Below are positions 5,336 through 27,505 of a stretch of DNA of 64,000 bases, in pieces. Made by a program: the position numbers and the translations under genes. Location of the stretch: positions 155,773 to 219,772 of IMG/VR virus record IMGVR_UViG_3300035696_000004. One strand, 5' to 3'. How positions within the stretch are numbered: the first letter of the stretch is position 1; every line of letters starts with the position of its first letter. The notes beneath the pieces are model-generated. The model saw only the letters and a program-made list of their open reading frames with translations, was not told the DNA's origin and did not search any database. Origin of the DNA: a virus (Duplodnaviria > Caudoviricetes).

Positions 5336-5410
5336 ACGCGTATTCCTTTTTAAAAGATATTAAACAGTACAACACATTACGACATGATTATTATTCAATG
5401 TCACCTGAGT

Positions 5411-5433: not shown

Positions 5434-5499
5434 AATCGTTTATTTTGACAAAGAAAAAATAGGGGCATAAACCCCCGCTCCTTGAGGAGCGGGGGAGCC

Positions 5500-7630: not shown

Positions 7631-9649
7631 TTAACGACGTTTACTGAAAACCTCAAACGGCATGATGAGACCATCCATCGGGTGGTTGGCTCGTTTCGGA
7701 TTGAGATACGATTCCGGTGACGTGAAAGCCTTGTGGTGATGTTCGAACGCCATGAGGGGAGCAGCACTTCGTTTTTCCATCGTGGCGCGCATGACGCCGA
7801 GACCCGAATCCGTCCCTACCTTGGGCAAACGATAATCCTCATCCTCTTCATCGGCGCTTCGAATCATGCAACCATACATGATCACTTCAAGAACTTTCAA
7901 GTTGACATCCAGTTTGCTATTGACCAAGTCGAAGAACTCAGTCAAGAACGCATCTGGAGAAATTACTTTGTCACGTTCATAGAGATTCTCTACGGACGAC
8001 TCAAGCAACTGGGCAATCTCGTTGGAATAATCGCTCATGTTGGCATGCTTGAGAGGGAGCGTCAGAATCTCTTTAGACCAATCCCAACCCTTCATCGAGA
8101 TGTTGTAATTCCCCATCTCGTCGATTTCACGCTTACCGTCTTTGATCGCGTGGTTCAGGAGAGCATACGACATAGATGCCATACGTTTTTCAACAGCGAC
8201 TTCGAATTCCACGAAGGTTTCGCAATCTTTCTCCTTTACCAGGAAGCCAATGACTGGCATTTCAGAAACGCGAGTGATGCTGTGGTCCTCGGGACGACCC
8301 GATGCAAAGATGTCTGTCAGACCAGTAGCGAACTTCGGAATCACCACTAGCGTAACATCGCGACCTTTCAGGTTGTCACTCAACAGATAGGAATATCCGT
8401 CAGGAGATACCTTGAGATAGCGCGACATGTGATCATCAGTAATCTTGATCTGCTTGACCACCGCATTACCATCCAAGTGCTTCACCGAGATCACCGACTG
8501 AGATTGCGGCTCGCACATTGTGACGGTACACATGTGTCCCAGATTCGTTCCTTCCGGGACATCGTCACTCAGACGACCAAAGCAGACGGAACAAACGCCA
8601 TACGGGTCAGGGTGCTGACAATGGTGAACGGAACGCATCTTGATCGTTGTTCCAATCAGGTGCGTATCCGTTGACATGACCTCCTCCAGAACCCCTTCAT
8701 CAGACATGTAGAATGCGCCGACGATATTCGGGAGATCACCCTTCACCAACACTTCCCCTGTCTCATCATCCACCTGTCGAGGTCGGATATGGAAGTGCGT
8801 ATAGGTCGTGCTGCCGCAGTCACAATGATGCAAGTTCTGCACCACTTGATCCATCAGTTGCAGACGCCTTGAGAAATACTCAGCCTTTTGCAGCGGAGAT
8901 TTCGCAAAGATCGACGCCTTCCCTGCTGATCGAGACTCCATCATGGAATCACACAGCTTACGGAACCCTTCGGCATAACCTCGTTTGATCGGATGACGGA
9001 ACGTGATCGAATCCAGTTCTGTCAAGTTACCTCGTGGTCCGATACATTGCTGCACCTGACTGCTCTTGACAATAGAAGATCGCATCCCTTTAGAGATCGG
9101 GTTGTCCGGAAAGAGCTCCGCTGACGCAACGGTTTTCATCACCGTGTTCGTCGCCCACTCGATAGACTTCTGCGTGTCGTTCATGGCCATCTTGATTTTC
9201 AGGATCTCGGGATGATCCAGAATCTCAATGAAGTTCAAGATATCCAACGACATCTGCATCGGCCGTGCCCGATTACGGAGATCGTTGTACATCAGGTTGA
9301 ACAACTGATACACACGCTTGGATAGAGCATCCCGGGAGGTTGGTCCCGAGTCATTCTGATACTTGTCATACGTCGACCACATGCAGTTGCCGAGAATTTC
9401 CAGGTGCGTGCCGCTGTTATACCGTTTACTGCCGAGAATCTTTGTCACGTGATGCTTCATCAGCATCGGTGTGTTTCGAAACTCGCGATGGAACTCCCAC
9501 GCATATGAGCTATAACACGTAGAGATCCAATCGACTTCCATTTCACCATCGTCGAAGACCAGGATAAAACGCCCTACTAGGCTTGTCCACAGATAGTCTG
9601 TTGAATAGTCCAGCAGGGTTCTGGCTAATATTCTTCGCATTATTACCAT
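7631..9649 (-). CDS. rpoC: Non-virion RNAP beta' C-terminal subunit (phiKZ gp74-like)
   Basis: Bridge-helix-like KAEYFSRRLQL, Zn ligands CDCG...CQH...CSVC, trigger-loop-like CEPQSQSVISVKH. Confidence 0.85.
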   Translation of the reverse strand: MVIMRRILARTLLDYSTDYLWTSLVGRFILVFDDGEMEVDWISTCYSSYAWEFHREFRNTPMLMKHHVTKILGSKRYNSGTHLEILGNCMWSTYDKYQNDSGPTSRDALSKRVYQLFNLMYNDLRNRARPMQMSLDILNFIEILDHPEILKIKMAMNDTQKSIEWATNTVMKTVASAELFPDNPISKGMRSSIVKSSQVQQCIGPRGNLTELDSITFRHPIKRGYAEGFRKLCDSMMESRSAGKASIFAKSPLQKAEYFSRRLQLMDQVVQNLHHCDCGSTTYTHFHIRPRQVDDETGEVLVKGDLPNIVGAFYMSDEGVLEEVMSTDTHLIGTTIKMRSVHHCQHPDPYGVCSVCFGRLSDDVPEGTNLGHMCTVTMCEPQSQSVISVKHLDGNAVVKQIKITDDHMSRYLKVSPDGYSYLLSDNLKGRDVTLVVIPKFATGLTDIFASGRPEDHSITRVSEMPVIGFLVKEKDCETFVEFEVAVEKRMASMSYALLNHAIKDGKREIDEMGNYNISMKGWDWSKEILTLPLKHANMSDYSNEIAQLLESSVENLYERDKVISPDAFLTEFFDLVNSKLDVNLKVLEVIMYGCMIRSADEEDEDYRLPKVGTDSGLGVMRATMEKRSAAPLMAFEHHHKAFTSPESYLNPKRANHPMDGLIMPFEVFSKRR

Positions 9650-9664
9650 CCCCCTTTTTCTTTC

Positions 9665-10600
9665 TTACTTCACGTTCTTGTATACGAATTTGATACCAGA
9701 CGTCGACAGCAGGTGTTTAACCAGCTGTAGCGGGCGAGAACCACCCAGAGGGATTTCTTTTCGATTGACCAGACTCTCCACATTGCTCGGCATGACAGCC
9801 GACATGAGATTGTGCAACAGGTGCCGGTGAGTAAACGGGCTGTTGTTTCGATCCAGTAGTTCCGCTGTCACCTCAGGTCCTACGTACGAGGTATACAGAC
9901 GGATCTCAGCTTCACCCAATGCTCGAACGGCATTGTTACGGCACGGCATGGAATACTTATCCGTGTTGGTTACCTGAGACAGGACACCAAAGTGCTGGTA
10001 CTTACCGGACGATACGGCAGCAGCATCATCACCGATCTTTTCAAGCAGCATCATGTACACACTACCGATGCGCACAGGGGTCTCTGTAACACCAGGAACC
10101 CCGTACTCATCTACATAGGTCACAGGTCCGTAAACGGGTGCATAACCTCGACTTTCACAATGTCGAATGATATCGGAATATTCATTCTCGTTGTCGGTCG
10201 GGTAGTAGATATAGATGCCTTTCTCAACAATAGATGCCAGATGGCCTCGACGACGAGCAAGTTTGTCCGGTCTCGCCATGATCAAGCTATGCATCCGGGC
10301 AGAAACGCACTCGTAGTAGCCCATGAGATAGTCCCAGATCCGATTGAGTTCATCGGGTTGCTGAGTTTCCATCTGAACAATGCGTTCGAGAGCGCCTTTG
10401 TAGTCGCCTTCCTGAACACCCAGCATTCTACGCACACGCTTGGAGACATCACGACTTGCTGCGTTGATGTATTGCTCGTAGAGACGGCTCACGTTCATCC
10501 GATTGACGGTTGAAAGGCCGTCCATCACGATGTCTGCACGATTACCTTCCGAGTCCACGGGCATTTCTTCGGGTTTGGCAATGTAGCAGATGACGCCTTT
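9665..10600 (-). CDS. rpoB: Non-virion RNAP beta C-terminal subunit, exon 2 (phiKZ gp71-73-like)
   Basis: Starts AAA GGC GTC (KGVI) right after the intron terminal G; PVDSEGNRADIVM, YMMLLEK and ALGEAE are RpoB C-terminal motifs. Confidence 0.85.
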   Translation of the reverse strand, partial: KGVICYIAKPEEMPVDSEGNRADIVMDGLSTVNRMNVSRLYEQYINAASRDVSKRVRRMLGVQEGDYKGALERIVQMETQQPDELNRIWDYLMGYYECVSARMHSLIMARPDKLARRRGHLASIVEKGIYIYYPTDNENEYSDIIRHCESRGYAPVYGPVTYVDEYGVPGVTETPVRIGSVYMMLLEKIGDDAAAVSSGKYQHFGVLSQVTNTDKYSMPCRNNAVRALGEAEIRLYTSYVGPEVTAELLDRNNSPFTHRHLLHNLMSAVMPSNVESLVNRKEIPLGGSRPLQLVKHLLSTSGIKFVYKNVK

Positions 10601-11978
10601 CCTTTTGTCCACTTGATCCGTTGTGTCTCCCGACACGCTCTATCAAGCCGGTGCGATTCCTGGCACCCGCCTCAGGCTTTCCCTGAGGAGCAGACTATAT
10701 CTTCACCTCCAGCATGACCTGGTAAGGTGCTTCCTATTTCCCCGGAGATGGCTATCTCCCGTGCACCTAAGCACTGACCCACTTGAGTGGTACACCGTGG
10801 TAAGCGGTTAGTCGTTGAACTCCTCCCATTCTCGCTGTCGTAGCGAGGGCAGGGGTTAGCTGCGGATTACCCAATCTTTGCCTCTTTTACCGTACCTGAA
10901 TGATTAGTTCAGCCCTCACGATCATTTCTAATCATGAGTTGGTGTGCAAAGCTCTCAGGGACTTCCCGTCAATTAAAGAAGGTTTCATTAACTATTTCTA
11001 ATTAATGAGGCGGGTTGTGAAAATCCATCCATCCAGATTCTTGTCGGTATCTAATCGACTTAAAATACTGGAACGATCGACATTAAAATGCCTAGCACAT
11101 TGAGTCAACGATCCAAACTCCATTGTTTTCCCGCCTTTACTAGCGCACAGCGGGATTGCGCTGGTGCCCTTCAGACCGCGATCGTAGCGATACGGTGTTT
11201 CTGAATAGCTGTCTCGAACGTTGAATTCTTTATCGGGATAAATCTCATTCCCGTACTGCGCTAACACAGGGATTGATTTTCCTGGAGCCCCGTATAACTG
11301 GTGGCGCTTCAGAAGTTCCCTTGTCGAATAAACTTCCTCTATGGAACCGTTCGAATCTTTCACTGTAACCATGTACCTCGACGGGGGTACCAGTTCAGTT
11401 CTATTTTCATAAAACCACGGTTCAGGGTCATTCGCACACCGGAACTCATACTTCCCGGCGACTAACTTCCCAAACATTTTTGGTCGCAGATCTACTATTC
11501 TGACGTCTTTCCCTAATCCCATGAATTCAGCAGCTTGAGTTATCGAGTGGAAATAGGACACTTCTCCTGTGAAGTAATCTCTAACTCTACACGGGATGTT
11601 GTCCCGTCTCAACCCGCTATTGACAGCATGGTAATTATTCCCGGAGTAGCTTGTCCATTCGAGGTTTTCGTACCAGTTATTTCCTGGATGAGCGTCGATA
11701 TGGTTCACAACGGTAAAATTATCAGGATCGGGATTATAAACCCATGCCAAAGCGACTGCTCTATGCACGGGCAAGGTCTCTGTCTTGGATCCTCTGAAAG
11801 TATCCACGGCGAGATAGCCATTAAGAAGATAAGGGGTGAGCATTATCTTTCGTTCTACTGAAACGATTGTGCCCACTCTGTCCACGGCATAATGTTCATA
11901 TCCCGGAATTATCCGAAACATTTCATCTTCCATTCATGCTCCTTTCAACTAAAGGGATGAACGGACTTTCACAATTCC
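10601..11978 (-). mobile_element. Group I intron with HNH ORF in the nvRNAP beta gene
   Basis: P aattgacgggaa, Q aatccgcagc, R gttcaacgacta, S aagatatagtc; 5' exon ends in U with a U-G pair in a P1-like hairpin; ends in G; splicing restores GFKLTDTAGG|KGVI (RpoB GDK..GRHGNKGVI). Confidence 0.88.
10998..11933 (-). CDS. Intron-encoded HNH homing endonuclease (NUMOD4-HNH-NUMOD1 type)
   Basis: IIPGYEHYAVDRVG; VHRAVALAWV..VVNHIDAHPGNNWYENLEW; C-terminal EFGSLTQCARHFNV helix-turn-helix. Confidence 0.88.
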   Translation of the reverse strand: MEDEMFRIIPGYEHYAVDRVGTIVSVERKIMLTPYLLNGYLAVDTFRGSKTETLPVHRAVALAWVYNPDPDNFTVVNHIDAHPGNNWYENLEWTSYSGNNYHAVNSGLRRDNIPCRVRDYFTGEVSYFHSITQAAEFMGLGKDVRIVDLRPKMFGKLVAGKYEFRCANDPEPWFYENRTELVPPSRYMVTVKDSNGSIEEVYSTRELLKRHQLYGAPGKSIPVLAQYGNEIYPDKEFNVRDSYSETPYRYDRGLKGTSAIPLCASKGGKTMEFGSLTQCARHFNVDRSSILSRLDTDKNLDGWIFTTRLIN

Positions 11979-13190
11979 ACCACCAGCCGTATCAGTCAGC
12001 TTAAACCCGATGTTCGGCGTGATCTCGTATTCAATGACGAATTCGATTCGCCAATCATCCAGAGCTTCCTTGCGGTAGTTCTTTTTGATCGGGTCACGTT
12101 CGGCCATCGTATTGTGGCCGACTACCGAAATGGCTTCCACTTCCATCCGATGAAGTTCCCGGGTGATGTTCAACTTCCCGTGACGCTCCCTTCGGATGCG
12201 GCGCAGCTCATCCAGAATACCTTGGTAAAACTCTCGACGACCTTTGTCGTACTTGAGCAACTGGGTATCCATTCCGACGGGTAGGCCGACCGTATTGCTT
12301 CGGTTCTCGTGCCAGACACGGATATCTTTGATGCGACCACCCGGTCCCGCGGCATAAACGAGGTCATCGAAGACATAGTTTATTTTCCGCAGACCATAGG
12401 CACTTTGCTCGACCAGTGCAAGATCCAAGTCATAATCTCGCAGCGCCAGCAAGAGTCCGTCTGGTCTTACCTCTTCCCCAATATCAGGGAATGCTTTGAA
12501 AACCTCGTCTGTCCCCATCAGGTTAAGTGGGAAATTATTGAGCCCAAAGGAAGCCGACCTAACTTCGTACGTCTTGAACCGAAGCTCTGGCAAGACATCC
12601 TCGCAGATCATGATTCCGTCTTCAGCGACGGCTTCATGTGAGAGATAGGCGATATTGAGCTCACGCCCAAAGCAATAGTTTCCGTTCTCCGTGACAGCCG
12701 GGGAATCAAGAAAGATTTCTCCTTTTTTGATTTCTTCTCCTCGACGGAGTCTGGAGTACGGTTTTTTCTTGACGTAATCGAAACCGAAATACTGATGCTG
12801 AGAACAATAGTTCGTCAGATTGATCATCCCAATCTCGTTATTGTCCTCTCTTTCGTACAAGACCACCGTTTGCGGATTGATCTTGATCGAGTCAACATCA
12901 TTGGTTCTCTGATATCGTTCGATCTTTTTCAGGATACGCCCCTGATGAGGCATCTTCACTGAGAAGGTATATTTCCCGAATTCACGTTCCATCCCTGTTT
13001 GAATTCGGCGTTCCGTCATCCCCTTTATGATCAGGTACTGTCCGATATGGCTTGCAAACATCTGGACCCGTGAACTGGAAATCGCTCCAATGAACGGATT
13101 CAGGCCGCACGTATCGAGAAACTCCCGCCGGAGTTGGTTCTGTTCTCGATACCATGGCAAATCACTATACGTCAGCGTTTCTTGACTCAT
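11979..13190 (-). CDS. rpoB: Non-virion RNAP beta C-terminal subunit, exon 1
   Basis: SSSRVQMFASHIGQ, GRELNIAY, EDGIMI; frame stops 9 codons into the intron; spliced product about 715 aa. Confidence 0.85.
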
Positions 13191-13243
13191 TACAGAACCC
13201 TTGTTTAGGTTTTGAATCTTCTTACTGGACACAACTACTAATT

Positions 13244-13269
13244 AGTAATATGTGTCTGAAACATTTTGG
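13244..13269 (-). promoter_or_regulatory. Putative phage early promoter
   Basis: Gene strand ccaaaatgtttcagacacatattac upstream of the nvRNAP beta gene. Confidence 0.55.
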
Positions 13270-13277
13270 AGAGTTTT

Positions 13278-13625
13278 ATGGCGACCGATATTAGTAACCT
13301 CATGGCAGGTACGACACAGCTCGTATATTACGATGAAGATTTTCGAGCGGTCTTGGAAGACCACATGACGATACTCCAAACCTACACCAATACCGTGAAG
13401 GTCGCTATTCAACCTGGCGATGCGGCGACCTTTGTGAACGACTTCTACGGGCTCATGGCGTATCTGGGTGAGCCTCCTCAACGGCATTGGCTATTGATGC
13501 GGATGATGGGATTCACATCCCCTGACCAAAGCGATGAAACGCTCACCTATTACTTGAAGCCCGATACGACGTTTGTGGAGCGACTTCGCTCGTACTACAT
13601 GACCAATCATACCGTGAAGGCTTGA
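13278..13625 (+). CDS. Conserved phiKZ-like hypothetical protein
   Basis: ATG after SD ggagag; 115 aa; ends at a bidirectional hairpin at 13673-13707. Confidence 0.65.
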   Translation: MATDISNLMAGTTQLVYYDEDFRAVLEDHMTILQTYTNTVKVAIQPGDAATFVNDFYGLMAYLGEPPQRHWLLMRMMGFTSPDQSDETLTYYLKPDTTFVERLRSYYMTNHTVKA

Positions 13626-13722
13626 GTTGGGTTAATACAAAGTATGTATGGTGAAAGTAAAAAAGAAAAAGACATAGGAGAGAGGGGCGAACCCCTCTCT
13701 CCTTATGCTCTCACTTTACGAC

Positions 13723-15024
13723 TTAGAACCCAGGACCGCGACGACCGCGACCGTACGGATCAGGACGTCCAACGCCACGACCCGCGGTTTGACCGCCATT
13801 ACTCAACGTGGCACGCCCGGCGCTCGGAGGTGCACGACGCAAGACCTGGCCACGCCCCAGCCAGGGTTGAGCGGCTTGCTCGTTTTGGTACGGATCGTTG
13901 TACGGATCACGTTCATACCGTTGCTGCTGGTATTGCGGCTGTTGCCGAGCGAGGTGACGTGCGGCGAAGTCCGCGAAGTCCGCACCGCCCTTTGCCGTTT
14001 TCGCAGGAGTGACCGGTTCGACACGGCCACGAGGTTCCGGAACAGCCATCCCGATTTCAGCAGCCGTCGGTTCAGCACGCTGTTGACGAGTGACGACCGG
14101 ACGATCTTCTACCTCCTTGGCAGCTTGCTTGATCTTGTTGAAAGCCGGTGCACCTTCATTGCCAGGAAGCATCGGAATCATCCGGATCTGGTTGAGCAAG
14201 ATCTTCATGTCTTCGGCAGTAGGTACCCAAGCCATGTCGAACTTCAATGCATTCATGCCGGGGATGCCATCCCCGAACAACTCACACTGCGCATTGATTT
14301 CTTTTGCCAGATTCCGACCCAGTAGCAGCAACGATTCGAAGTACGGTGCAAACTTCGAATCACTCCCCGCGTAGTAGTTTTCGGGATGTTCGAGGTCCGG
14401 GAAGAGATACTCGAGAACCCCCAAGAGCGTATCGCGGGCTTTATTGCTGATCTTGACGCCGTGGAATTCTCCTTTGGCTGCCTTCAGTGCTGTGTAGAAC
14501 GGGAAAGATACAATCCCCGCGCGAGCGAACACCTGCTCGCCGATATGACCGCTTCGCTTCAGGTAGATCTTGACGAAGAGTTCATCTTCCTTGGTGGCCG
14601 GAATCTTCGACATGATGCTCTTGAAGGCCTGGATGGTCTTCTCATCGGCTGCCGACGCTTTCGACAGAAAAACTTGCTGAGGCGTCGAGAGCTTGGTTTG
14701 TTCAGCAGGCGAGGCGGCCAGTTCGAGCAGCAATTTGACCTGTGCGCCGATCACCTGGTTGAACCGGATGTTCATGGCCTTCCTGAACCGAGTCAGGACT
14801 TCAGATTCCCCGCAGGAAACCTCCTCCCAGCCCGGATGGAACGCGACACGCTTCGACCAATCCGAATCTGCCATGTGCTCGCGACTCGGCAAAACGAGTC
14901 GCTTACCACTCATGGTGAACGGGCGGTGGTTACCGTTTACATCTTGGGTGGATAGGCAGTCATCGCTGGTGACATGAAATCCAGCGAAGGTCAGGACACT
15001 GCGATAAAACTCGATCAGATCCAT
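13723..15024 (-). CDS. phiKZ gp70-position protein with disordered R/G/Q-rich tail
   Basis: 433-aa ORF between the gp69-like gene and the RNAP beta gene; tail ends RGVGRPDPYGRGRRGPGF. Confidence 0.7.
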   Translation of the reverse strand: MDLIEFYRSVLTFAGFHVTSDDCLSTQDVNGNHRPFTMSGKRLVLPSREHMADSDWSKRVAFHPGWEEVSCGESEVLTRFRKAMNIRFNQVIGAQVKLLLELAASPAEQTKLSTPQQVFLSKASAADEKTIQAFKSIMSKIPATKEDELFVKIYLKRSGHIGEQVFARAGIVSFPFYTALKAAKGEFHGVKISNKARDTLLGVLEYLFPDLEHPENYYAGSDSKFAPYFESLLLLGRNLAKEINAQCELFGDGIPGMNALKFDMAWVPTAEDMKILLNQIRMIPMLPGNEGAPAFNKIKQAAKEVEDRPVVTRQQRAEPTAAEIGMAVPEPRGRVEPVTPAKTAKGGADFADFAARHLARQQPQYQQQRYERDPYNDPYQNEQAAQPWLGRGQVLRRAPPSAGRATLSNGGQTAGRGVGRPDPYGRGRRGPGF

Positions 15025-15042
15025 TTTCTTTTCCTTGTTGTC

Positions 15043-16515
15043 TTAATAGCCGCTAAACTGCCGACCCGATTCATAACCACTACCGGCGAAATCTTGCGGG
15101 AGCGATATTGTCGGAAGAACTTCGTTGATGAAGTTCTCAAACCGCTCGGCTGTCGCTCTGACGTGCTGATTGTTGTACGCGAAAACCGGGGTGGCCAACG
15201 AGTTACTGAACGACGGCGCCACGAAACGCTCCGTCGGATAACCATCCAGCTCGATATCGATGATGGTATCGCCCATGAGGTCGAGAGTCATTTCGATAGC
15301 AAAGCCAATTTCACCTTGGTAGCAGATATCGTTCAGTACTTCGCAGATGGTTCGAATCCGGAGATTCTCGGCAGGATAGGTCAGATCCATGTTCGAGAAA
15401 CTGCGCAGACCCATGGGTTGGAAGGCCACTTGGGAGTTCATGGTTCGATTGGTGGCTTTGAAGGCAGCCCACGTCAGACCCGATTCCATCATGATGCCCG
15501 GGATCGATTGACTCAGGATGCAGGCGACCTGCGTGATACGGTCCCGACCGTCCCAAGGACTGGTGTCACCAGCATGATGCAGCCGGTTCCGTTCCAGATT
15601 CGGCATGATGATCGCTTCGGTCACGTCTTCGTAACCCGGAGACAACCGTTCCAGATCACGCAACGTGAAGTAGTTCGTCGAGGCCACACCTTGGATACTG
15701 GCCAGCGATTTCAGGAACGTGTCGTTCATCACAGCGGCTTCAGCGACCTGATCGCCATTACGGGCATCGCTGAAGATCGAACCGCCTGTTTTCCCGAGAG
15801 CCATCAGGGATTGAGCATCACGATAGCTCGACAGGATACGGCTGGTATAGACCGCCGAATTGGCGTTGCCATAACGGCTCTTGCGGGGCGCCGCTGTGGA
15901 CATCGTACGACCATCGATCACATCACCTTCGTCGTCCGGAAGATGTGTGGTTTGCATCTGAGCCAACAGGTCGGTCGGGCGCATCATGACCTGGTTGTTG
16001 GTGTCGATGACGTTTGCGTAGCTGTTGTTGGCGAGCAGTTGGCTGGAGTTGGCGATCACCGACCGGGGTTGCGTAACGCCATGGACGCGCACCATTTCTT
16101 CACGGATGAGGGTCGTCGAGTTGATGTAGAACTCGAGATCCGGATTGATGGTTTGTTGCAACGTGATGTCGCGCGATGCGCTGTACCCCATTACCAGCTC
16201 GGTGATCTTGCTCCCGCGAAGGTTGTCCGTTTCGACTTCCATCATGAAACGGAACCGCGGCTCATTCCAACCTTCCGGAATCGGAATGATATCCTTTTGA
16301 TCGACAGCGATGGCTGGTGCCAAAATCTGATTGGCCAGGCCCGATACCGCCATCGAGCTCAGATCCTGATTCTGCTCGATGCGTTCCGCGATCTGATTCA
16401 CGGCGTCGTGGGTAAAGTGCGCTTCGAAAGGACGCGAAAACTGCGCCCCATACGTACCCGTTTCGTGGATGAAAAAACGGGTGATTCGAACACTGCTGTT
16501 ATCGTCGAAGAACAT
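15043..16515 (-). CDS. Probable phage-nucleus import factor PicA/Imp1 homologue (phiKZ gp69 position)
   Basis: 490 aa, immediately downstream of the gp68-like subunit; identity rests on synteny and size only. Confidence 0.55.
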   Translation of the reverse strand: MFFDDNSSVRITRFFIHETGTYGAQFSRPFEAHFTHDAVNQIAERIEQNQDLSSMAVSGLANQILAPAIAVDQKDIIPIPEGWNEPRFRFMMEVETDNLRGSKITELVMGYSASRDITLQQTINPDLEFYINSTTLIREEMVRVHGVTQPRSVIANSSQLLANNSYANVIDTNNQVMMRPTDLLAQMQTTHLPDDEGDVIDGRTMSTAAPRKSRYGNANSAVYTSRILSSYRDAQSLMALGKTGGSIFSDARNGDQVAEAAVMNDTFLKSLASIQGVASTNYFTLRDLERLSPGYEDVTEAIIMPNLERNRLHHAGDTSPWDGRDRITQVACILSQSIPGIMMESGLTWAAFKATNRTMNSQVAFQPMGLRSFSNMDLTYPAENLRIRTICEVLNDICYQGEIGFAIEMTLDLMGDTIIDIELDGYPTERFVAPSFSNSLATPVFAYNNQHVRATAERFENFINEVLPTISLPQDFAGSGYESGRQFSGY

Positions 16516-16558
16516 GGGGTTTTCTTTCGTAGAAACGTGTTATCGTTAACTGCGCTTT

Positions 16559-18157
16559 TTAAAGTTGTTGAGTTCGGCTCGCCAGCGCTTGATCTCTCTG
16601 GATCTCTACCATCTCGAGAGCGAAACGTGCCAGATTGATCTTGAACTCGTAACTCAGGGAATAGTACCGAGAATTCTTGTTATTGGTCACGGTACTCAAC
16701 CATTCATCCGGGATTGTCAGTAACCATCCGTTGGCTTTGAATTGTTTTTCCAACGAATCTATCGCTTGGATTGCATGGTTTTTCTGCAAGTCCAGCTTTT
16801 TGCCAGACGTCTTGCGGCGATACGGATAAAACTTATCGAACTCTTCGAGCATGCTCTTGGGGATGCGCGCCCGACTGTCGTCCAACAGCACCGTCGGTTG
16901 GTCAAACGACCTTCTTCGATTGGTGTTAATGGCCGTGATCAGCGCAGCCAGCTCGTAATGACCACGATGCCAGAGAATGGCTTGTGCGACAGCCAAGAAT
17001 TCCACCAACGTCGAGACATCGAAGTGCTCACTCGAGTGGGTCGGGATCCGAATCGACATGACCATTTGAGCGATCTTCTCTTGGCAAGGTTCCAAGGTCT
17101 GACCAATGAGGGCTCTTGCCGATGTCAAGGACGCAGTCACCAACTCTTTCGGGATACCAGGCGCCAGCGCCTCGGCCAGTTTGTACGGCTTGTGGATAGG
17201 AGATTCGATAATTGCGATATCCCCATCCGTGACCTTCATCTTGATCTTGACGTTTTCCAGACCCGAGAGATTGCTTTCATCATTCCCGTTATCCGTCGGA
17301 GCACGCTTGTCTTTGATAGCACCTTTGAAGTTGGTATCGATCCCTTTCAGTCGATTGCAGACGAACTTGAAGATGACCTTCCCAAAGGCCTTCTTCGGAT
17401 CAATACCACGGATATCCATGCTGGAAATCTTTCGCACAATGAGGAGTGCGAGAATCCATTTTGGGATATCTTCGGAACTGATGCCGGCGATAATAGCACT
17501 CGCTAGCTTCTTTCGATCCGCCGGGAGCGAATCGATCACGTAGTCACGCAACCGAACCATAGCACCCGAGTTATAGAGCGGCGTCTTGCCCAGGAGCTGG
17601 TACGCCTCGTACTCTTTCCAGTTCGTCCCGGCACTGCGTTTGATCCGGGCAATGTACTCACCCCAGACCATATAGATCGGACGTAGGATAACCGACAAGG
17701 CGAGGATTTTCTTGTAGTCGTCCCGCAGGATGGTTTTGGTTTTGTTACCAATCATCCCATCAACGAATTCATCCGCCAGATCCGTTGGGATCGTGATACC
17801 AGATCGGAAATACACCCAATCTGCCAATTTGGCAGGATCGTGGAGTTCGACGAGCTCGGCGATATCGTCCATGAGCACGAGGGAGAGATCGTGTTCATCG
17901 AGAATCGATTCGAGGTGGTCTTTGATCTTCGACATCGAATTGAAGATGTCGCCCTGTTGTTCGTTCGGTAACGTCGACCAATAGGCGTTGATTTGTTCGA
18001 ACGGGTCGTAATCGTTCGAGTCGTCATCGTCGCGGCTATTGGTATTTTTTTCGATCAGAACAAACGTAACACGCTGTTCGTTTTTATTCTGGTCGAGACC
18101 AATGAGATGTGCTTCATTGGCGACGCTATCAAATAGTACCCCCACTTTCAAGCGCAC
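16559..18157 (-). CDS. nvRNAP specificity subunit (phiKZ gp68-like)
   Basis: 532-aa helical protein with size and position matching gp68; promoter motif upstream. Confidence 0.6.
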   Translation of the reverse strand: MRLKVGVLFDSVANEAHLIGLDQNKNEQRVTFVLIEKNTNSRDDDDSNDYDPFEQINAYWSTLPNEQQGDIFNSMSKIKDHLESILDEHDLSLVLMDDIAELVELHDPAKLADWVYFRSGITIPTDLADEFVDGMIGNKTKTILRDDYKKILALSVILRPIYMVWGEYIARIKRSAGTNWKEYEAYQLLGKTPLYNSGAMVRLRDYVIDSLPADRKKLASAIIAGISSEDIPKWILALLIVRKISSMDIRGIDPKKAFGKVIFKFVCNRLKGIDTNFKGAIKDKRAPTDNGNDESNLSGLENVKIKMKVTDGDIAIIESPIHKPYKLAEALAPGIPKELVTASLTSARALIGQTLEPCQEKIAQMVMSIRIPTHSSEHFDVSTLVEFLAVAQAILWHRGHYELAALITAINTNRRRSFDQPTVLLDDSRARIPKSMLEEFDKFYPYRRKTSGKKLDLQKNHAIQAIDSLEKQFKANGWLLTIPDEWLSTVTNNKNSRYYSLSYEFKINLARFALEMVEIQRDQALASRTQQL

Positions 18158-18208
18158 ATGTTCCCCCTTTACTCCGTATTAGAAAACACTGGATTACAAG
18201 CTCATTTC

Positions 18209-18234
18209 AGTAATATGTGATTGAGATATTCTGG
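18209..18234 (-). promoter_or_regulatory. Putative phage early promoter
   Basis: Gene strand ccagaatatctcaatcacatattact. Confidence 0.65.
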
Positions 18235-18308
18235 ACTCCTACCTAAAAGACATGAAGGCAAATCCCAAACCGTGAGGCCTGGGATTTGCACATCAAGACG
18301 TATGCCGA

Positions 18309-18722
18309 TTACTTGGCGGCTTTGGCGTAGGCGACTTCAGCGGCCACGTAAGCAGCCAGAGCAACAGCACCGGCAGAGCCAGCTTGGAACTGGCTGGCAT
18401 TGCGGCGCGTCACACCCAGACGCGCGGTCAGGGACTTGCCTTGGTAACCGGCGGCCACGTTCGCCAGATAGGTACCGGTGTTTTCGTCCCAGTCGACCGT
18501 TGCGACGGACAGTCCGCGGCGATCGAAGATCTGGAGACCGTTCGGGGTTTGAATCCCCGAGAAGGAATAGTCCGGATTCCCGGACGAGGTGACGATTTCG
18601 AGGAACACGACTTCAGCGATCGTATCCTGGACAGCAGCGTTCTGCGGCGAAGCTTCGTCCGCGGTCAGCGAGATGAGGTTGCCGGTCGCGCCCGATACCA
18701 GCGGAAGGGAAAGCAGTGCCAT
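18309..18722 (-). CDS. Hypothetical protein, Ala/Gly-rich
   Basis: 137 aa, SD aaggag, strongly biased codon usage. Confidence 0.65.
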   Translation of the reverse strand: MALLSLPLVSGATGNLISLTADEASPQNAAVQDTIAEVVFLEIVTSSGNPDYSFSGIQTPNGLQIFDRRGLSVATVDWDENTGTYLANVAAGYQGKSLTARLGVTRRNASQFQAGSAGAVALAAYVAAEVAYAKAAK

Positions 18723-18774
18723 TTGGAGCTCCTTTGGTTAGGCTCTTTGGGTAAAGAGCCATACGATTTTCAGA

Positions 18775-19515
18775 TCAGAACGGCATGTCGTCATCGATCT
18801 CTTGTTGTCGCTGACCACCGCCGTTGTTGTTGTTCCAGTTGCTGCCGCCACCATTGCCACCGTTGTTGCTACCCTGGTAACTGCCGTTGTTGTTGTTGTT
18901 GCCGCCTTGATTCGGGCGCGGACGCGGCGGAACCAGTTGTTGGGTCGCGATCGTGGAGAGCAGACGTTCGAGCACATTGCAGCGGCCGGTAGCATCCAGA
19001 ACGGACATCTCGGCTTCGCTGAACTGTTCGCCAGTTTTGTGGTAGTACGCATGCCAGTCGTTGGTGCCGAACTTGAAGACGATCCGCGGACGGGACTTGT
19101 CGTACGCAACGATGCAGATGTAGACGACACCATTGGCATCCTTGCCGACGTAGGTGGTCGACTCGACCATTTTGCCATCGGGTTTCTTCTGGACCCAGCG
19201 CTGCTTCAGGTTTTCGATCTTGAAGCCGATTTCTTTCTTTTCCGGTGTCGGCACGAAATCGATCGCATGGCGCAGCAGGATCAACATCTTTTCGAAGTTC
19301 GGAACATCCATGTTGGCCGAGATGCGACCACTGTCGGCATCACCTTCCACATTGGTCCAGACGGTGATCCGCGGTTCACCTTTGTTGAAGCCAAACCGCA
19401 GTTGGGCTTTCTTCCCGTGATCATTGTCGGCGGTCATGATCAGTTTCGGGTTGTCGAAGCCGGTCATTTCTCGTTGCTGACCGCCATTGTTGTTGTACTC
19501 ACCAGCCATGCTCAC
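18775..19515 (-). CDS. Single-stranded nucleic-acid-binding protein, probable ChmC homologue (phiKZ gp67 position)
   Basis: Beta-rich core, Asn/Gly-rich disordered tail, SSB-like terminus DDDMPF; upstream of the gp68-like gene. Confidence 0.55.
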   Translation of the reverse strand: MSMAGEYNNNGGQQREMTGFDNPKLIMTADNDHGKKAQLRFGFNKGEPRITVWTNVEGDADSGRISANMDVPNFEKMLILLRHAIDFVPTPEKKEIGFKIENLKQRWVQKKPDGKMVESTTYVGKDANGVVYICIVAYDKSRPRIVFKFGTNDWHAYYHKTGEQFSEAEMSVLDATGRCNVLERLLSTIATQQLVPPRPRPNQGGNNNNNGSYQGSNNGGNGGGSNWNNNNGGGQRQQEIDDDMPF

Positions 19516-19568
19516 TCCCTTCAGGTAACTTGATTCGCTGTATCATTAGATATCTCAGCGACGTATTT

Positions 19569-20444
19569 TTACACGATGATGGACTTCACGAGTTCTTTGG
19601 CCCACGGATTCTTGAGCCGATCAACGCACAACCGAATACGATCCGTCGTGGTCGTTTGATTCCAGTTGCTGGCAGTGGCAAGTTCGACCAGATCCTTTTT
19701 AAGGGATGCTGCCATAGGTCGAAAGTGCTCACTGTCTCCAAAGATCTGGATGAAATCTTCCCTGAACGGAATCATGGAGAGGTCTTTCCCATTCAGATAT
19801 TTGGTATACCATAATGCTCGCGGTTTGAGGGCACCTGTATGACTTTCCAACAAGACCAGTTCCCCAAACTCAGGGTACGACAGCAGATCATACGCGTAAT
19901 GCGTCATGATGAGCGTCTTTTTCTTGCTAGTGGGACGGAGCTTCAATGGAAAGGTGCACACATCGTAATCTTGTCGTTTCACCCCCTTTAGTGAATCGAG
20001 GACGTGCTGTACTGCCTTGTGAAGTGTCGACGTGTAGATTTGTTGCTTGGGCGTTGAGTCGACCCTCAACGTCGCTCGCGGGTACTTCTTGTCCATCCTT
20101 TCGTAATTACTCACATAGAACACCACACGCGTTCGTTCTGCGGTCTCATGGTTCACGATACCGGCGATCGTCTCCATTTCTTGGAGAATCGCGTCTCCGA
20201 TATGGTTCGGCATGGCCGACATCGCGTCTTCGCGATTCAGCGATCCATTGAGGTTTCGAAAGAGTGTTCGGATGTTGATCCAAACTTCCTGAAACCCCAT
20301 GGTGAGTGGTGGTGTTTTGTGTTGGATGTCGGGATGGATGTTCAACAGGCTTTCCAAGCCAAGGCTCGAACCGATACTGACTGGTAATTGTCCGACTTCT
20401 CGGCTCGAGATGACTTCAGATGAGGCACTAGCGGCCATCAACAA
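19569..20444 (-). CDS. Conserved phiKZ-like protein, possibly a degenerate 5'-3' exonuclease/PIN-like fold
   Basis: 291 aa between SbcD and the ChmC-like gene; WINIRTLFRN only loosely resembles a PIN/FEN first strand. Confidence 0.5.
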   Translation of the reverse strand: MLMAASASSEVISSREVGQLPVSIGSSLGLESLLNIHPDIQHKTPPLTMGFQEVWINIRTLFRNLNGSLNREDAMSAMPNHIGDAILQEMETIAGIVNHETAERTRVVFYVSNYERMDKKYPRATLRVDSTPKQQIYTSTLHKAVQHVLDSLKGVKRQDYDVCTFPLKLRPTSKKKTLIMTHYAYDLLSYPEFGELVLLESHTGALKPRALWYTKYLNGKDLSMIPFREDFIQIFGDSEHFRPMAASLKKDLVELATASNWNQTTTTDRIRLCVDRLKNPWAKELVKSIIV

Positions 20445-21550
20445 ATCCTTTCAATAATAGAGGAAGCCAAATCCAGCACTTCCGCTCGAGTCCCCTTTCC
20501 TGCCATTCGTTCCAATAGCAAACTTTGGATATTATCCCGAGTGATAGCAATTGGATCAAATAGCGTCTCGTTTTCAATGATGATTTCTTTTTCTTCGGAA
20601 GCATCGCTGGGGTTCTTTGACCAGTTGAACAGAGGATGTCGTCTGATCAATGCATCCATATTGGCAAAGATCGGGTTAGTATACTCACCCACAACACGTA
20701 CATGCGCGCCAGCTTGAAGCTTCTCGACTTCACGATCAATTTTCTCGATCGTCTCCTCCAAACTCAACTCACCGCAATGTACCGTAACAAACTCAAGAGC
20801 ACCGTCATTATCGACGAATCGAAATTCATCACGACCGTTGGCTCTGAGTGTTGCTCGAACATATCCCTTCTTCCCTTCTTCCCCGTGGGACATTCGATCA
20901 AATGAACCCTGGGCAAAGATATGCTCCCGTCGAGAACGGACATGGACGTGACCGATGCTGATGAATCGCTTCACCAACTTCAGGTATTCATCCCCGTTGT
21001 GTCTCGGGATAGAAGCAGGTGCCGCAGGCGGTAGCTGGTGATCAAACTGCCCGTGCATGATAGCGATATCCACTGACGTCAGGCCTTTGGCTCGAATCAG
21101 TTCTTTCACCTGCACCAGTGTCACATCTGTAGACGGATGCCACTCATCGGGTACGTAGAGGACGTTATATCCTTTTATGTTCTCGATATGCAGCGTTTTG
21201 ACGTACAACACGTCCGCATGTGCTCCACTGATTGTGTTGAGCGTTTCGAAACGCCGAGATTGCTGCCAATCATGCGACCCTGTGCCTTCAAGGATGCGGA
21301 GCATGACGTCATGTTTCTTGCACAGCCGCAACAAATCAGAAATCCAGAAATCAATTTCTCTAAGGTCGTCTCCATTCGACACCAAGAGATCGTCAAAGAC
21401 GTCTCCGGCTAAAAAGAGAACATCTAAAGAAGCGAATTCAGCGTTGTCGCTGAATGGTTTCCCTAGATTCTGTATCATCATTGAGACAGGGTTACGGCGA
21501 TGACCCAGATGCAGGTCGCTCGCCGATGCCAGGTTGAGATCAGAGTTCAT
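20438..21550 (-). CDS. sbcD: SbcD/Mre11-like metallophosphoesterase nuclease
   Basis: SDLHLG, AGDVFD, EGTGSHD, MHG and GHVH motifs. Confidence 0.85.
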   Translation of the reverse strand: MNSDLNLASASDLHLGHRRNPVSMMIQNLGKPFSDNAEFASLDVLFLAGDVFDDLLVSNGDDLREIDFWISDLLRLCKKHDVMLRILEGTGSHDWQQSRRFETLNTISGAHADVLYVKTLHIENIKGYNVLYVPDEWHPSTDVTLVQVKELIRAKGLTSVDIAIMHGQFDHQLPPAAPASIPRHNGDEYLKLVKRFISIGHVHVRSRREHIFAQGSFDRMSHGEEGKKGYVRATLRANGRDEFRFVDNDGALEFVTVHCGELSLEETIEKIDREVEKLQAGAHVRVVGEYTNPIFANMDALIRRHPLFNWSKNPSDASEEKEIIIENETLFDPIAITRDNIQSLLLERMAGKGTRAEVLDLASSIIERIC

Positions 21551-22196
21551 CGAATTCGGTATAATCGAGGAGAGGTGCCGGTTTCACTTCTTCGGTAGCT
21601 TCTTCCGGGCTACCGATCTTTTCGAGATCAACCGGTGTGACCAGGTTGTACTTCTTGAAGATCGCACCCCAGCGTTTCAGGTATTCAACAGCCGGACCGT
21701 CACCCTTCATGACGTTGAAGTGGGAATGCAGACGACTATCCAGATACGCCTCGGCGTTTTTGGGACTTTGGTTCATGAGCTGTTGGGCTGTTTTGACCAG
21801 GTGCCCTACACCACCCAGGACACCGAATCGCGCCTTGATGTCGGATGGCTTGATGGCTTCACGATCGTACAGAGGCGGTACCGTGAAGAGAACAGGGCCG
21901 CCGATATATTCGACGACGTCTACTTCTTTAAACGTCCCGGACAGGTCGGTATCCGCATCGCCACCCGATGCAGTATGGACCCAGAGATCGATGTCCCCGC
22001 CATTGGGGCATTCGTACGTGGTACCAGTCAGATGGTTGGCCAGAATCGGTAGAAACACGCCGACGAAGATCCGTTCGATCACTTGGGCATTTCCGGTGCG
22101 CCTGGTGGCATCATCAAGCAGTCGCTTGGTTCCTTTGACATCCAGCGAATCTCTCTGCGATGCCAGATTTCCGAAATTGATTCCCGATACCGCCAT
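21540..22196 (-). CDS. Conserved hypothetical protein
   Basis: 218-aa ORF overlapping the SbcD start. Confidence 0.65.
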   Translation of the reverse strand: MAVSGINFGNLASQRDSLDVKGTKRLLDDATRRTGNAQVIERIFVGVFLPILANHLTGTTYECPNGGDIDLWVHTASGGDADTDLSGTFKEVDVVEYIGGPVLFTVPPLYDREAIKPSDIKARFGVLGGVGHLVKTAQQLMNQSPKNAEAYLDSRLHSHFNVMKGDGPAVEYLKRWGAIFKKYNLVTPVDLEKIGSPEEATEEVKPAPLLDYTEFDEL

Positions 22197-22198
22197 GA

Positions 22199-22621
22199 TT
22201 AGGCACTCCCTGTATTGTTGAGGTTTTCGACAATGGAGAAGACAGAGTCTCTCGCTTGGATGGCTTTACCAACCGAATATTCGACGCTTTGGTACGTCAC
22301 GGTGATAGTGATGACTAGCGTCACGCTATTGGTCACGTTGGAGCTCGACCAGGCATCACTGGTGATTTCGACTTGTGCGGAACTGTAATACCGCGCAAAC
22401 ATCGCCTCCAGCGCAGACCGGAGAGACGAAATGGTTGCTGAGATATCCAGAGGTTTTTGAGCCAAGAGATACTGAATGCTCGTAATCGCACTCGGGTAAA
22501 TATACGTCTGGAGGTAATCCGTTTCGAAACAGTACGTGAACAACCGATCCAGTTGCTCCTCGATACCATATACCCAGCCACGATCATCCATCGTCGGGAC
22601 CGGAATTGAATTAGTTGTCAT
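22199..22621 (-). CDS. Conserved hypothetical (possible virion) protein
   Basis: ATG 22621 with SD gagga; the track's upstream extension crosses a hairpin and overlaps the next gene. Confidence 0.6.
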   Translation of the reverse strand: MTTNSIPVPTMDDRGWVYGIEEQLDRLFTYCFETDYLQTYIYPSAITSIQYLLAQKPLDISATISSLRSALEAMFARYYSSAQVEITSDAWSSSNVTNSVTLVITITVTYQSVEYSVGKAIQARDSVFSIVENLNNTGSA

Positions 22622-22724
22622 GGGGGTTTCCTCGATATGATCACAAGATGATACCGGGGTGTAAAAAAGCAAGAAAAAAAGTACGGTATAAAAAGGAGAA
22701 GCCCGAAGGCCTCCCCTTTTCGGT

Positions 22725-23363
22725 TCACAGTTTATTTCTGTAAATGCTGGACGGATCTTCTGCACCTTCCCGCAGCGCAATCTCGATCGCGTTCCAAGCA
22801 TGGTTCTTGATATCGGAAACTTCCTCACATGTCAAGTCACGGTCACCTTCAACCAAATCCTCAACATAGTGCGTTATTTTCCAATCCGGACCTTCTTCTC
22901 CTTCCGATACCACCAGATCTTCCACGACACCGTCCATGACTCGCCGATAGTCGTAGTGGTCCTCACCGATTTGACCCGGATACAGATCCACATAGCTATC
23001 GGAATAGCCATCGATCTCTTGATCGAAGTACTTTCGTCTCGCGTACTTGTTCGCCATCAGGTAACGTTGCATCACCTTAGGCGCTTCTTGCAGTTGAGAG
23101 ATATCCGTCAAGGCTCGAATCGTGTTGGGTGAGAACAGCATCTTCGTTCGTCTGAGCGCTGCTTTGCCCTTACGAACCGCTTCACTTCCGTGGAAGCTTT
23201 CGAATCGCTCTCTGGCAGAACTCATGAAGGCACGCCCGGCATCGGTCAACGTATTCGAAACCGCGCTGAACTGCTGCTCGATATACGAAATTGTACCGGG
23301 ATGATCGTCACCGTAGACAAGGTAGTTGAACGCCTCCATCCCACCTGTCGAAACTTGAATCAT
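22725..23363 (-). CDS. Conserved hypothetical protein
   Basis: 212 aa, SD gaggtgaagga, follows beta' exon 2. Confidence 0.7.
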   Translation of the reverse strand: MIQVSTGGMEAFNYLVYGDDHPGTISYIEQQFSAVSNTLTDAGRAFMSSARERFESFHGSEAVRKGKAALRRTKMLFSPNTIRALTDISQLQEAPKVMQRYLMANKYARRKYFDQEIDGYSDSYVDLYPGQIGEDHYDYRRVMDGVVEDLVVSEGEEGPDWKITHYVEDLVEGDRDLTCEEVSDIKNHAWNAIEIALREGAEDPSSIYRNKL

Positions 23364-23380
23364 TCCTTCACCTCGTTTAG

Positions 23381-23605
23381 CTACGCTTCGGGTATTTCCA
23401 TAAACCTCTCGAAAGCCCCTGGGGTGGTGTTTTCTTTTCCGCTATGGATCAAATTGGAGATTGACGCCACAGTAGGTTTTGGCATAGCCAGGTTGCCTGT
23501 TACCTTTCGGGGTTTCTTCAAGTCAAACACGCCTTTATGGGGCGCTAGATTTTCGTGCGCTCTGGCCATGAAATTATCAAGACACAGAGTGAAGTTGAGC
23601 TGATC
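23381..23605 (-). CDS. rpoC: Non-virion RNAP beta' N-terminal subunit, exon 2
   Basis: Begins GAT CAG CTC (DQL), completing NCDFDG|D. Confidence 0.8.
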   Translation of the reverse strand, partial: DQLNFTLCLDNFMARAHENLAPHKGVFDLKKPRKVTGNLAMPKPTVASISNLIHSGKENTTPGAFERFMEIPEA

Positions 23606-24033
23606 CAATATACATTGTACACATTGCTGTGTTTTTATCAGGACGTGACTCCTGTCGGGACCGATTCCAGTCGGTGCCTGTCCGATGATTTCGCACCGGT
23701 TGAGGTCATATCTTAGCCTATACTACAGCTCTTTCCGTTTGGGGCGCACTTGCTACCCTACTCTACTCGCTTTAATCGTCGTGTCACGACGACCACCTGA
23801 CTTTATACAGATGTGATTATGCTTTCGCAATAGCTTTCGATGACCGTCGAACACACTTCCCAGTGGGAAGCTTCGTTGCGGATTGCCCGACACATGCCTC
23901 TTTTACCGTACCTGAATGATTAGTTCAGCCACATTCCTATTACTAAGAATGTTTGGTGTGCACTGTCATTTACGGATGCTCAGTCCGTGGGTGTCCCCGT
24001 CAGTTAGAAAAGTTTAACGATGGCAATCAATTC
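23606..24033 (-). mobile_element. ORF-less group I intron (428 nt) in the RNAP catalytic motif
   Basis: P aactgacgggga, Q aatccgcaac, R gttcgacggtca with matching S aagatatgacc; exon ends GGT, intron ends G; splicing restores NCDFDGD. Confidence 0.85.
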
Positions 24034-27336: not shown

Positions 27337-27370
27337 CTCAGGTATGTGATATAGGTTTGAAATATTCTAG
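27337..27370 (-). promoter_or_regulatory. Putative phage early promoter of chimallin
   Basis: ctagaatatttcaaacctatatcacatacctgag; 33 nt identical to 56439-56471. Confidence 0.75.
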
Positions 27371-27505
27371 AATCGACCTCAGACCACAAAACTGATACCA
27401 TAGCTCCCAGCCGGCGAAGCCGACGGGTGGTAAGAAGATTTCTCTTCTCTATAGGATAGAGGTATATCCTGTAAAAAATAACTTAGTCTTCTTACCGGGG
27501 GGGCT

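Follow-up and report, generated by a model that had tools for sequence, protein, structure and literature searches.

A putative domain-level chimera and a conserved P5 module among three predicted group I introns in the RNA polymerase genes of a jumbo phage

Mobile group I introns that bear HNH endonucleases are established in the RNA polymerase (RNAP) genes of jumbo phages, as exemplified by gp210 of PhiPA3, which lies in the virion RNAP (vRNAP) gene gp211/209, and in nucleus-forming phages intron endonucleases are used by co-infecting viruses as weapons against each other (Birkholz et al. 2024, PMC11620839; review PMC12908238). Here we analyze three predicted group I introns (A, B and C) in RNAP genes of the virus represented by IMG/VR record IMGVR_UViG_3300035696_000004 (Duplodnaviria; Caudoviricetes). 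The window, i.e. the whole stretch of 64,000 nucleotides that was analyzed (positions 155,773 to 219,772), constitutes the last 64 kb of this 219,772-bp record, which has terminal repeats. As chimallin and many split RNAP subunits are encoded in the window, we regard the virus as a jumbo phage of the phiKZ-like, nucleus-forming kind. Among deposited phages, Burkholderia phage FLC9 comes closest, with only 51-63% protein identity.

PhiPA3 gp210, gp273/274 of phage 201phi2-1 and the gp179 element of phiKZ resemble the introns of this phage in the host gene class, the interruption of catalytic motifs and the placement of an HNH open reading frame (ORF) upstream of the P3-P9 core, and their likeness extends to P7-P7.1, which is 88-94% identical to that of 201phi2-1 and PhiPA3. 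In contrast to the phiKZ-like examples, a single genome here contains three introns in three RNAP genes, at the sites GG^KGV, GD^KAV and DFDG^D (the caret marks the insertion point). Moreover, A and B carry a P5 extension of the ACACCAA...GGUAUGGUAAAAGAG type, which is absent from the examined phiKZ, PhiPA3 and 201phi2-1 introns, and A and C end with a CGGGUG..CACCGG hairpin followed by GUGGACAAAAGG, whereas the ends of the phiKZ, PhiPA3 and 201phi2-1 introns read UAACGA..CUGAA.

Introns A (10601-11978), B (23606-24033) and C (60945-62623), all encoded on the minus strand, correspond to introns 1, 3 and 2 of an initial annotation. The latter had described intron 1 as a mosaic sharing its 5' domain with intron 3 and its 3' domain with intron 2, and had proposed recombination between the domains of co-resident introns. 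We consider it likely that two different phenomena are combined here: the block shared by A and B belongs to a conserved module, while A and C form a true chimera that points to recombination. This is a case of one chimera, between A and C; A is not a double mosaic.

From R to the 3' splice site, A is 77% identical to C in a pairwise alignment and 43% identical to B. In a comparison of 13 introns A and C are mutual nearest relatives in this region (78-81%, the next best value being 68%), so the sharing of the 3' domain between them, and the different sequence of B there, hold as first described and go beyond family conservation. Two segments reach 94% identity, namely 10759-10820 versus 61100-61161 and 10593-10671 versus 60937-61015. 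The first shared tract (10759-10820, minus strand) comprises the R/P7 5' strand with P7.1 (31/31 positions identical), the P7.1a hairpin (8/12) and an extra hairpin, UCAGUGCUUAGGUGCACGG (19/19), and the second (10601-10670, minus strand) consists of P9.1 (21/24) followed by P9.2 and the GUGGACAAAAGG 3' tail (45/46). The 3' half of C, which is the part shared with A, occupies 60945-61161 on the minus strand. Identity amounts to 48% in P7.2, P3' and P8 taken together and to about 45% in P9; in the 3' exon, the first 8 nt match at 7/8 positions and the next 12 nt at 4/12. The extra hairpin and P9.2 are common to A and C only, being present in none of the 11 other introns aligned, and scans of IMG/VR with 24-mers derived from P7-P7.1 and P9.2 of A and C gave 0 other matches. 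A pairwise alignment spanning P2 to the 3' exon has its best single breakpoint at the very first base of R (position 10820 in A and 61161 in C); the two introns are 44% identical on the left side of this point and 77% identical on the right side (max-chi-square 52, permutation p<0.0005).

The 5' domains of A and C are 44-51% identical. The P3-P5-P4 domain of C (61209-61334, minus strand) carries a P5 extension (..ACACCAAA..GUAGGUUUGAAAAGAC..) that is divergent and belongs to the phiKZ/PhiPA3 type; the 5' domain of C shows 68% identity to phiKZ and 51% to A, and its P3-P5 stretch TTAATTGCTGGAAACTCTCGTTA matches the phiKZ gp179 intron at 23/23 positions. In the 5' tree C groups with the phiKZ gp179 intron (support 98/96) and with PhiPA3 (98/98). 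The approximately unbiased (AU) test rejected A+C for the 5' tree (p 0.001), and for the 3' tree it rejected both C+phiKZ (p 0.003) and C+phiKZ+PhiPA3 (p 0.0002). The recombination tests suggested in the initial annotation thus yielded a breakpoint at R and 5' and 3' trees that are incongruent by the AU test. The general proposal of recombination between ribozyme domains is supported for A and C, on the strength of the trees, the AU tests and the breakpoint, and is not supported for A and B. We interpret A and C as a natural domain-level chimera, whose 3' halves would be sisters and whose 5' halves would derive from different lineages: the 5' half of A appears to be of the ACACCAA...GGUAUGGUAAAAGAG type and that of C of the phiKZ/PhiPA3 type, and the endonucleases likewise seem to belong to different lineages.

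The sequence shared by A and B requires another explanation. The 35-mer occurs exactly twice in the window, at 10880-10914 in A and at 23896-23930 in B (both on the minus strand), with 0 mismatches, and no match to it was found in any of 100 dinucleotide shuffles; the identity around it extends weakly to 59 nt at 86%. The exact repeat was therefore correctly recognized, and so was its setting, since both copies lie beside gcacacca and a hairpin of differing sequence, between P (the 5' strand of P4) and Q (the 3' strand of P4), i.e. within P5. That the block was originally given in the + sense and gcacacca in the RNA sense is a harmless inconsistency. Read in the RNA sense, GCACACCAA comes first at both places, followed by an unlike hairpin (24 nt in A, 22 nt in B) and then by the block itself, GG-CUGAACUAAUCAUUCAG-GUACGGUAAAAGAG-GC, where CUGAACUAAUCAUUCAG is the P5c hairpin and GC represents the first two bases of the P5a 3' strand.

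In A, the P5 extension (10876-10951, minus strand) forms a three-way junction composed of P5a (CUUUGC/GCAAAG), ACACCAA, the P5b hairpin, GG, the P5c hairpin and GGUACGGUAAAAGAG. The module of B (23892-23965, minus strand) has the same architecture with a different P5b hairpin, and an additional hairpin (ACGGACUGAGCAUCCGU) is located 5' of it. The block is the 3' strand of this P5a/P5b/P5c junction inserted in P5. It contains the P5c hairpin together with the junction strand GGUAYGGU, the second GGU of which pairs with the ACC of ACACCAA; an A-rich strand and the first bases of P5a are also part of it. RNAalifold applied to 28 family modules produced 23 pairs, 18 of which have compensatory changes (in P5a, P5b and P5c). 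A covariance model (R1) built from foreign introns only, with no window sequences, recognized A with 133.7 bits on 10987-10852 and the P3-P4 domain of B with 86.3 bits. For C it gave 17.5 bits (E-value 0.033), which corresponds to a divergent analogue and not to a member of the module family; C lacks the block and has only a degenerate analogue with 13/29 aligned bases. To judge by analogous P5 extensions, the module probably serves as a buttress of the P4-P6 domain. For the P5c loop (ACUAAUCAY), a loop-loop partner was sought by eye in A, where GAUUAG (P5b) and UUAG (L2) are complementary to it, and was rejected as neither is conserved in B or in the family. A third genome match to GGTAYGGTAAAAGAG, at window positions 56703-56717 with 2 mismatches, was attributed to chance, as it lies inside an ordinary 157-aa ORF.

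A survey of related phage introns, which had been suggested as a check, showed that the block is conserved in many of them and is degenerate only in C; this speaks against recombination between A and B. When the core of A was compared with phage records by blastn, the same region was found in the lysin introns of Staphylococcus Twortvirinae, in an intron of Enterococcus phage iF6, in a faecal phage and in Pseudomonas phage HPP-Temi. The iF6 intron, situated downstream of a class III ribonucleotide reductase gene, matches 31/35 bases of the block. Pattern scans of IMG/VR revealed 21 introns with the arrangement ACACCAA-hairpin-GG-hairpin-GGUAYGGUAAAAGAG, 8/21 of which carry CUGAACUAAYCAYUCAG and match the block at 30-33/35 positions, and a metagenome scan added 14 more introns with the module. 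Gapped-pattern matches in five IMG/VR records (L024, L025, L028, L031 and L032) turned out to be a protein-coding gene and were excluded. An unrelated metagenomic intron (L050) contains an exact 33-mer, including both minor variants common to A and B, and another (L055) has the same UGC/GCA closing pairs as A and B. Judging from these sequences, the module appears to be a near-invariant element of a large phage intron family, present in dozens of unrelated introns. As the block is near-constant over so many of them, the 35-nt identity of A and B would reflect purifying selection on a family-wide element rather than an exchange between the two introns. The module is also a useful search handle for hidden introns, such as B, which are missed by the Rfam group I model.

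Some members of the family deserve separate mention. Record L054 has two same-family introns (4139-4214 and 4597-4671) within a few hundred bases, and in L013 a second intron core follows the first at a distance of ~400 nt; genes with several introns are apparently frequent in the module family. In L035, L036 and L054:4103-4238 the usual P3/P4 strand (AATTGACGGG) does not precede the P5 module, and the 5' strand may be located further upstream, perhaps past an inserted ORF.

Several points weigh against the interpretation of the block as a conserved module and of A and C as a chimera. Since ACACCAA and GGTAYGGTAAAAGAG were prescribed in the scan patterns, the constancy of these 22 bases is to some extent a product of the search, and the unbiased parts of the family sample are only the P5c hairpin and the blastn-derived matches. 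With respect to A and C, other jumbo-phage introns also show conservation of P7 with P7.1 (88-94% in 201phi2-1 and PhiPA3), of J8/7, of P9.1 and of the 3' tail; Aeromonas phage ZPAH34, L023 and L017 have P9.1 as well as the GUGGACAAAAGG tail. What the pair alone possesses is the extra hairpin and P9.2. In the 3' tree A and C are the closest pair, but their fork has no bootstrap support. The clades submitted to the AU test were named after the identities had been seen, which makes the p-values optimistic, and the alignments comprise ~180 columns. No close phage relative (best 52-63% protein identity) was found from which the direction or timing of the exchange could be read, and A, B and C are spliced only by prediction. 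Despite the optimistic p-values, the signal of an A/C chimera is consistent across methods.

The two co-resident introns A and C could have exchanged sequence by homologous recombination or by gene conversion. The switch would lie at the universally conserved R element (GTTCAACGACTA), with seeding provided on one side by the conserved core elements and on the other by the near-identical target and 3' exon (GGTGGT^AAAGGCGT versus GGTGAT^AAAGCCGT). A switch at R and a similarity that ends 8 nt into the 3' exon fit either of these processes. The start could be an I-HmuI-like nicking endonuclease that would act shortly downstream of the insertion site and would also cleave DNA in which the intron is present: I-HmuI and I-HmuII nick intron-plus and intronless alleles alike, and the cut of I-HmuI is placed 3 nt downstream of the insertion site (PMC3428280). 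With a cut of this type, the initiating lesion would adjoin the shared tract. Identity is patchy, as some hairpins reach 98-100% and P7.2, P8 and P9 stay at about 45-48%; this suggests several short tracts or a later replacement of hairpins. The absence of the 24-mers elsewhere in IMG/VR is consistent with an intragenomic exchange, although the collections contain no close relatives of this phage, and an external donor, e.g. a co-infecting phage, may have been involved. The sequence relationships and the structure were directly observed, whereas the mechanism of recombination, its direction and any participation of the endonucleases are inferred.

The insertion sites of A (10593-10600/11979-11990) and C (60937-60944/62624-62635) are identical at 12/14 positions, from -6 to +8. 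When the bacterial beta motif GDKMAGRHGNKGV is used as a reference by eye, the site of C may be read as GD^K, 7-8 codons upstream of the GN^K equivalent of A, in which case C would occupy a look-alike and not a homologous site. BLASTP of the two beta paralogues of FLC9 gave no significant match. Since the two targets are almost identical for 14 nt and enzymes of the I-HmuI type nick intron-containing alleles slightly inside the 3' exon, each enzyme could nick the other locus, and a concerted evolution of A and C driven by the endonucleases might be going on at present, a possibility that we consider doubtful. If it were true, repair from the paralogous intron would repeatedly homogenize the modules of the 3' half close to the exon (P9.2, P9.1 and the extra hairpin), and the 5' halves and endonucleases would stay distinct. 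Among the introns compared, all four combinations of the two P5-extension types with the two 3'-end types were found. If exchange of this kind is real, the peripheral modules of phage group I introns (P5-extension types and 3'-terminal types) would constitute exchangeable cassettes.

For A and B, a more modest event than domain exchange can be imagined, namely a short-patch gene conversion of ~35-40 nt that affected only the block, atop an already conserved module. The two introns agree at 35/35 positions, versus 30-33/35 for most family members, and they share GC closing bases and two minor states uncommon in the family, i.e. U in the P5c stem and C in GGUACGG. Phage recombination systems do make short conversion tracts. 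We nevertheless regard such an event as unlikely. Only 2-4 positions separate it from plain conservation and no statistical excess is demonstrable; every one of these states is present in unrelated introns (L050, L052, L033, L055, L011), and the 5' strand of P5a (UGC) would require a matching change outside the tract. Nothing requires a short conversion tract between A and B, and conservation of the module accounts for the block.

The relationship of A and C might also be explained without any recombination of ribozymes, if one intron had been copied to the second beta-like gene and its 5' half and endonuclease had then diverged faster. Ectopic homing to a look-alike target would agree with the near-identity of the insertion sites (12/14), and A and C have the same layout, with the HNH ORF between P1 and P2 and with homologous endonucleases (35% identical, E-value 1e-26). 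This explanation seems quite improbable, as the 5' domain of C is specifically similar to that of the phiKZ gp179 intron (68%, 23/23, 98/96) and that of A to L011-type introns (74%), the AU test rejects A+C in this domain, and the abrupt step in identity at R is not explained by differences in rate.

Hardly compatible with the survey is the double origin of A that had been proposed initially, in which A would be a double recombinant of co-resident introns, with a 5' domain received from or donated to B and a 3' domain from C. The exact 35-nt identity, the shared GCACACCAA, the UGC/GCA closing pairs and the two uncommon minor states are in its favor. However, the P3-P6 domains of A and B are only 65-69% identical, and outside the module the two 5' domains are no more alike than random family members. 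The nearest relative of A in this domain is L011 (74%), and those of B are L013 (72%) and L023 (70%). With the block masked, A and B are at or near the bottom of each other's lists, A being last or near last among the relatives of B, in a multiple alignment that may under-align B. The P5b hairpin between the two shared strands is entirely unlike in A and B, and B has an extra hairpin. In the 5' tree A and B fall without resolution inside one clade and an A+B group was not recovered; when forced, this group was neither rejected nor favored by the AU test (p-AU 0.16). Taken together with the family-wide distribution of the module and the 33-mer of L050 with both minor states, these results largely refute the double origin of A, which we consider very improbable.

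It is scarcely conceivable that a metagenome misassembly (collapsed repeats or mis-joined contigs) created a false identity or false chimeras: the IMG/VR record is metagenome-derived and Logan contigs break at the repeated tracts 10593-10635 and 10791-10914 and near 23901, but breaks at 31-mer repeats are expected of real repeats, the sequence across the junctions is the same, with 0 differences, in two different peat studies (X1 records for 10606-10820, 10791-10914 and 10885-19484, and an X2 record for 10791-11574), and all three introns restore conserved protein motifs exactly. Most of the stretch is near-identical in two peat metagenome studies (99% and 92% of sampled words), and three peat metagenome DNA runs contain all or part of it. 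In the contigs from the three peat runs neither joints nor an intronless form nor an alternative mosaic could be found, and no RNA runs with this phage were found among the listed sequencing runs. In X3, 'variant' letters appear at 10656-10677, and they seem to stem from a mapping of the paralogous intron C onto A.

According to their sequences, A, B and C appear to be IA-type group I introns of one modular phage family, which interrupt RNAP genes and would be self-splicing. Their exon junctions were fixed with the use of intronless homologues. The Rfam model RF00028 (gathering threshold 50 bits) matched A at 11032-10670 (75.9 bits) and C at 61392-61014 (66.9 bits), both on the minus strand, and did not detect B even at E<=10 in a 651-nt slice around it; a search of the whole genome gave no further RF00028 match and no further copy of the module. 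All three introns have U at -1 and a terminal G. The cmscan alignments contain an insert between the 5' strand of P7 and the 3' strand of P3, of 67 nt in A and 70 nt in C, which folds into hairpins, and B has a 106-nt insert at the equivalent place. These extra helices, P7.1 and P7.2, between P7 and P3' point to the IA subgroup (IA2-like).

Intron A (1378 nt) lies in the RNAP beta gene, at the junction TDTAGG^KGVICY, with U11979 at -1 and the terminal G10601. Its exons match phrog_3295 and Pfam Rpb2_6, and a tblastn search with the intronless gp370 of FLC9 showed that residues 408 and 409 are contiguous across the intron gap. The homing endonuclease ORF of A (10998-11933, minus strand; 311 aa), located upstream of the catalytic core, encodes an I-HmuI-like HNH protein with NUMOD (Pfam matches: I-HmuI_NUMOD-like and NUMOD1). 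At 10998-11025 (minus strand), the final codons of this ORF (..TTRLIN and the stop) share nucleotides with the P2 5' strand and with CCGCC, the presumed internal guide sequence, and because of this overlap translation of the ORF and folding of P1/P2 would compete.

Intron B (428 nt, no ORF) interrupts the RNAP beta' gene and splits NCDFDG^DQLNF, i.e. the Mg-binding NADFDGD motif. The profile positions of phrog_2987 are continuous over both ORFs flanking B, and the junction rebuilds NCDFDG^DQL. In P1 of B (GAUGGU/GCCAUC), the splice site is occupied by a U-G pair; P3 is CUUUUC/GGAAAG, P4 and P6 are also present, and P7 (GGUCA/UGACC) is covaried. In two known phages, phiKZ (L046; gp180/gp179/gp178) and ZPAH34 (L047; gp032/gp033), a group I intron at the FDGD motif of beta' is unannotated in RefSeq. 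The ZPAH34 gene is listed there as two coding sequences, and the short 3' exon that follows the gp179 element of phiKZ is unannotated.

Intron C (1679 nt) resides in a second beta-like RNAP gene (phrog_3148), at the junction AAGVGD^KAVFANQ; relatives in phrog_3148 are annotated as virion RNAP. With the intronless gp40 of FLC9 as a tblastn query, residues 331 and 332 are contiguous across the intron gap. Only two relatives of the 5' exon of C were found (L063 and L064, 52% identity), and both represent intronless alleles of the locus. The homing endonuclease ORF of C (61367-62557, minus strand; 396 aa) contains HNH_3 and NUMOD4, with Pfam and PHROG matches. In A as well as in C the HNH ORF lies between the 5' splice site and P2, and the 5-bp P1 candidates recognized by eye, GGU^GG with CCGCC in A and GAU^UA with UAGUC in C, would place the endonuclease ORF in the P1 loop.

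As regards the remaining part of the window, a megablast search of positions 9000-13000 against phage records gave no match, and thus no close relative is deposited; the tRNA scan found none. Seven intergenic copies of a ~39-nt motif (+ strand ...TATATAGGTTTGAAATATTCTAGAATCG) were noticed at 4185-4223, 5400-5438, 18201-18239, 27337-27375, 37816-37854, 40194-40232 and 56439-56477, in a genome transcribed mostly from the minus strand, and they probably serve as a promoter or another regulatory motif of the phage. Hairpins rich in GC and related to each other (GCATAGAGCCCGGG...CCCGGGCTCTATG), at 30412-30454, 39800-39842 and 42012-42054, look like a reused terminator. At 42010-42109 there is a weak, sub-threshold match to the Rfam Thr_leader (36.8 bits), which probably reflects nothing more than this hairpin.

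The P5 three-way junction described above links the introns of this jumbo phage to the IA2/IA3-type introns of Herelleviridae (Twortvirinae lysin introns, iF6), in which it has a near-identical sequence; the family defined by this junction is itself IA2/IA3-like. The Herelleviridae introns differ in the hosts of the phages (Firmicutes), in the interrupted genes and in the other 3' peripheral elements. A survey of Bastillevirinae described introns in which the 5' part of the core aligns to one subgroup and the 3' part to another, i.e. the same kind of mosaic (PMC11878797). Through the present analysis a striking exact repeat is explained as ordinary structural conservation, and a P5 module supported by covariation has been delimited.

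The Tetrahymena IC1 intron carries P5abc, a three-way junction on P5 with an A-rich strand, which acts as a folding and stability buttress of P4-P6. The module of A and B is also a three-way junction on P5 with an A-rich strand, and most family members have a GNRA-type P5b loop (UAGUAAUA or GGAAAC). Unlike P5abc, it belongs to IA-type introns with P7.1/P7.2 and has no sequence homology to its Tetrahymena counterpart; the two junctions may be alike in topology.

The closest parallel to the A/C pair comes from coliphage T4. Bryk and Belfort are said to have found in 1990 that its td, nrdB and sunY introns exchange domains via short conserved core elements and form chimeric ribozymes; these were reportedly rare laboratory recombinants, usually with the DNA between the genes deleted. 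As in T4, the introns of the present phage are co-resident and of the IA type, and A and C switch at a conserved element, R. In contrast to the T4 events, the putative A/C chimera is natural, fixed and apparently functional, and the intervening 50 kb are intact, which implies gene conversion rather than crossing-over. The pair might therefore constitute a clean natural case of group I ribozyme halves of different ancestry joined at R. Recombination among such introns is relevant to their diversification and to moves to new targets, and current understanding is left unchanged, since the A/C chimera is a well-delimited natural example of the already known process of domain exchange between phage introns.

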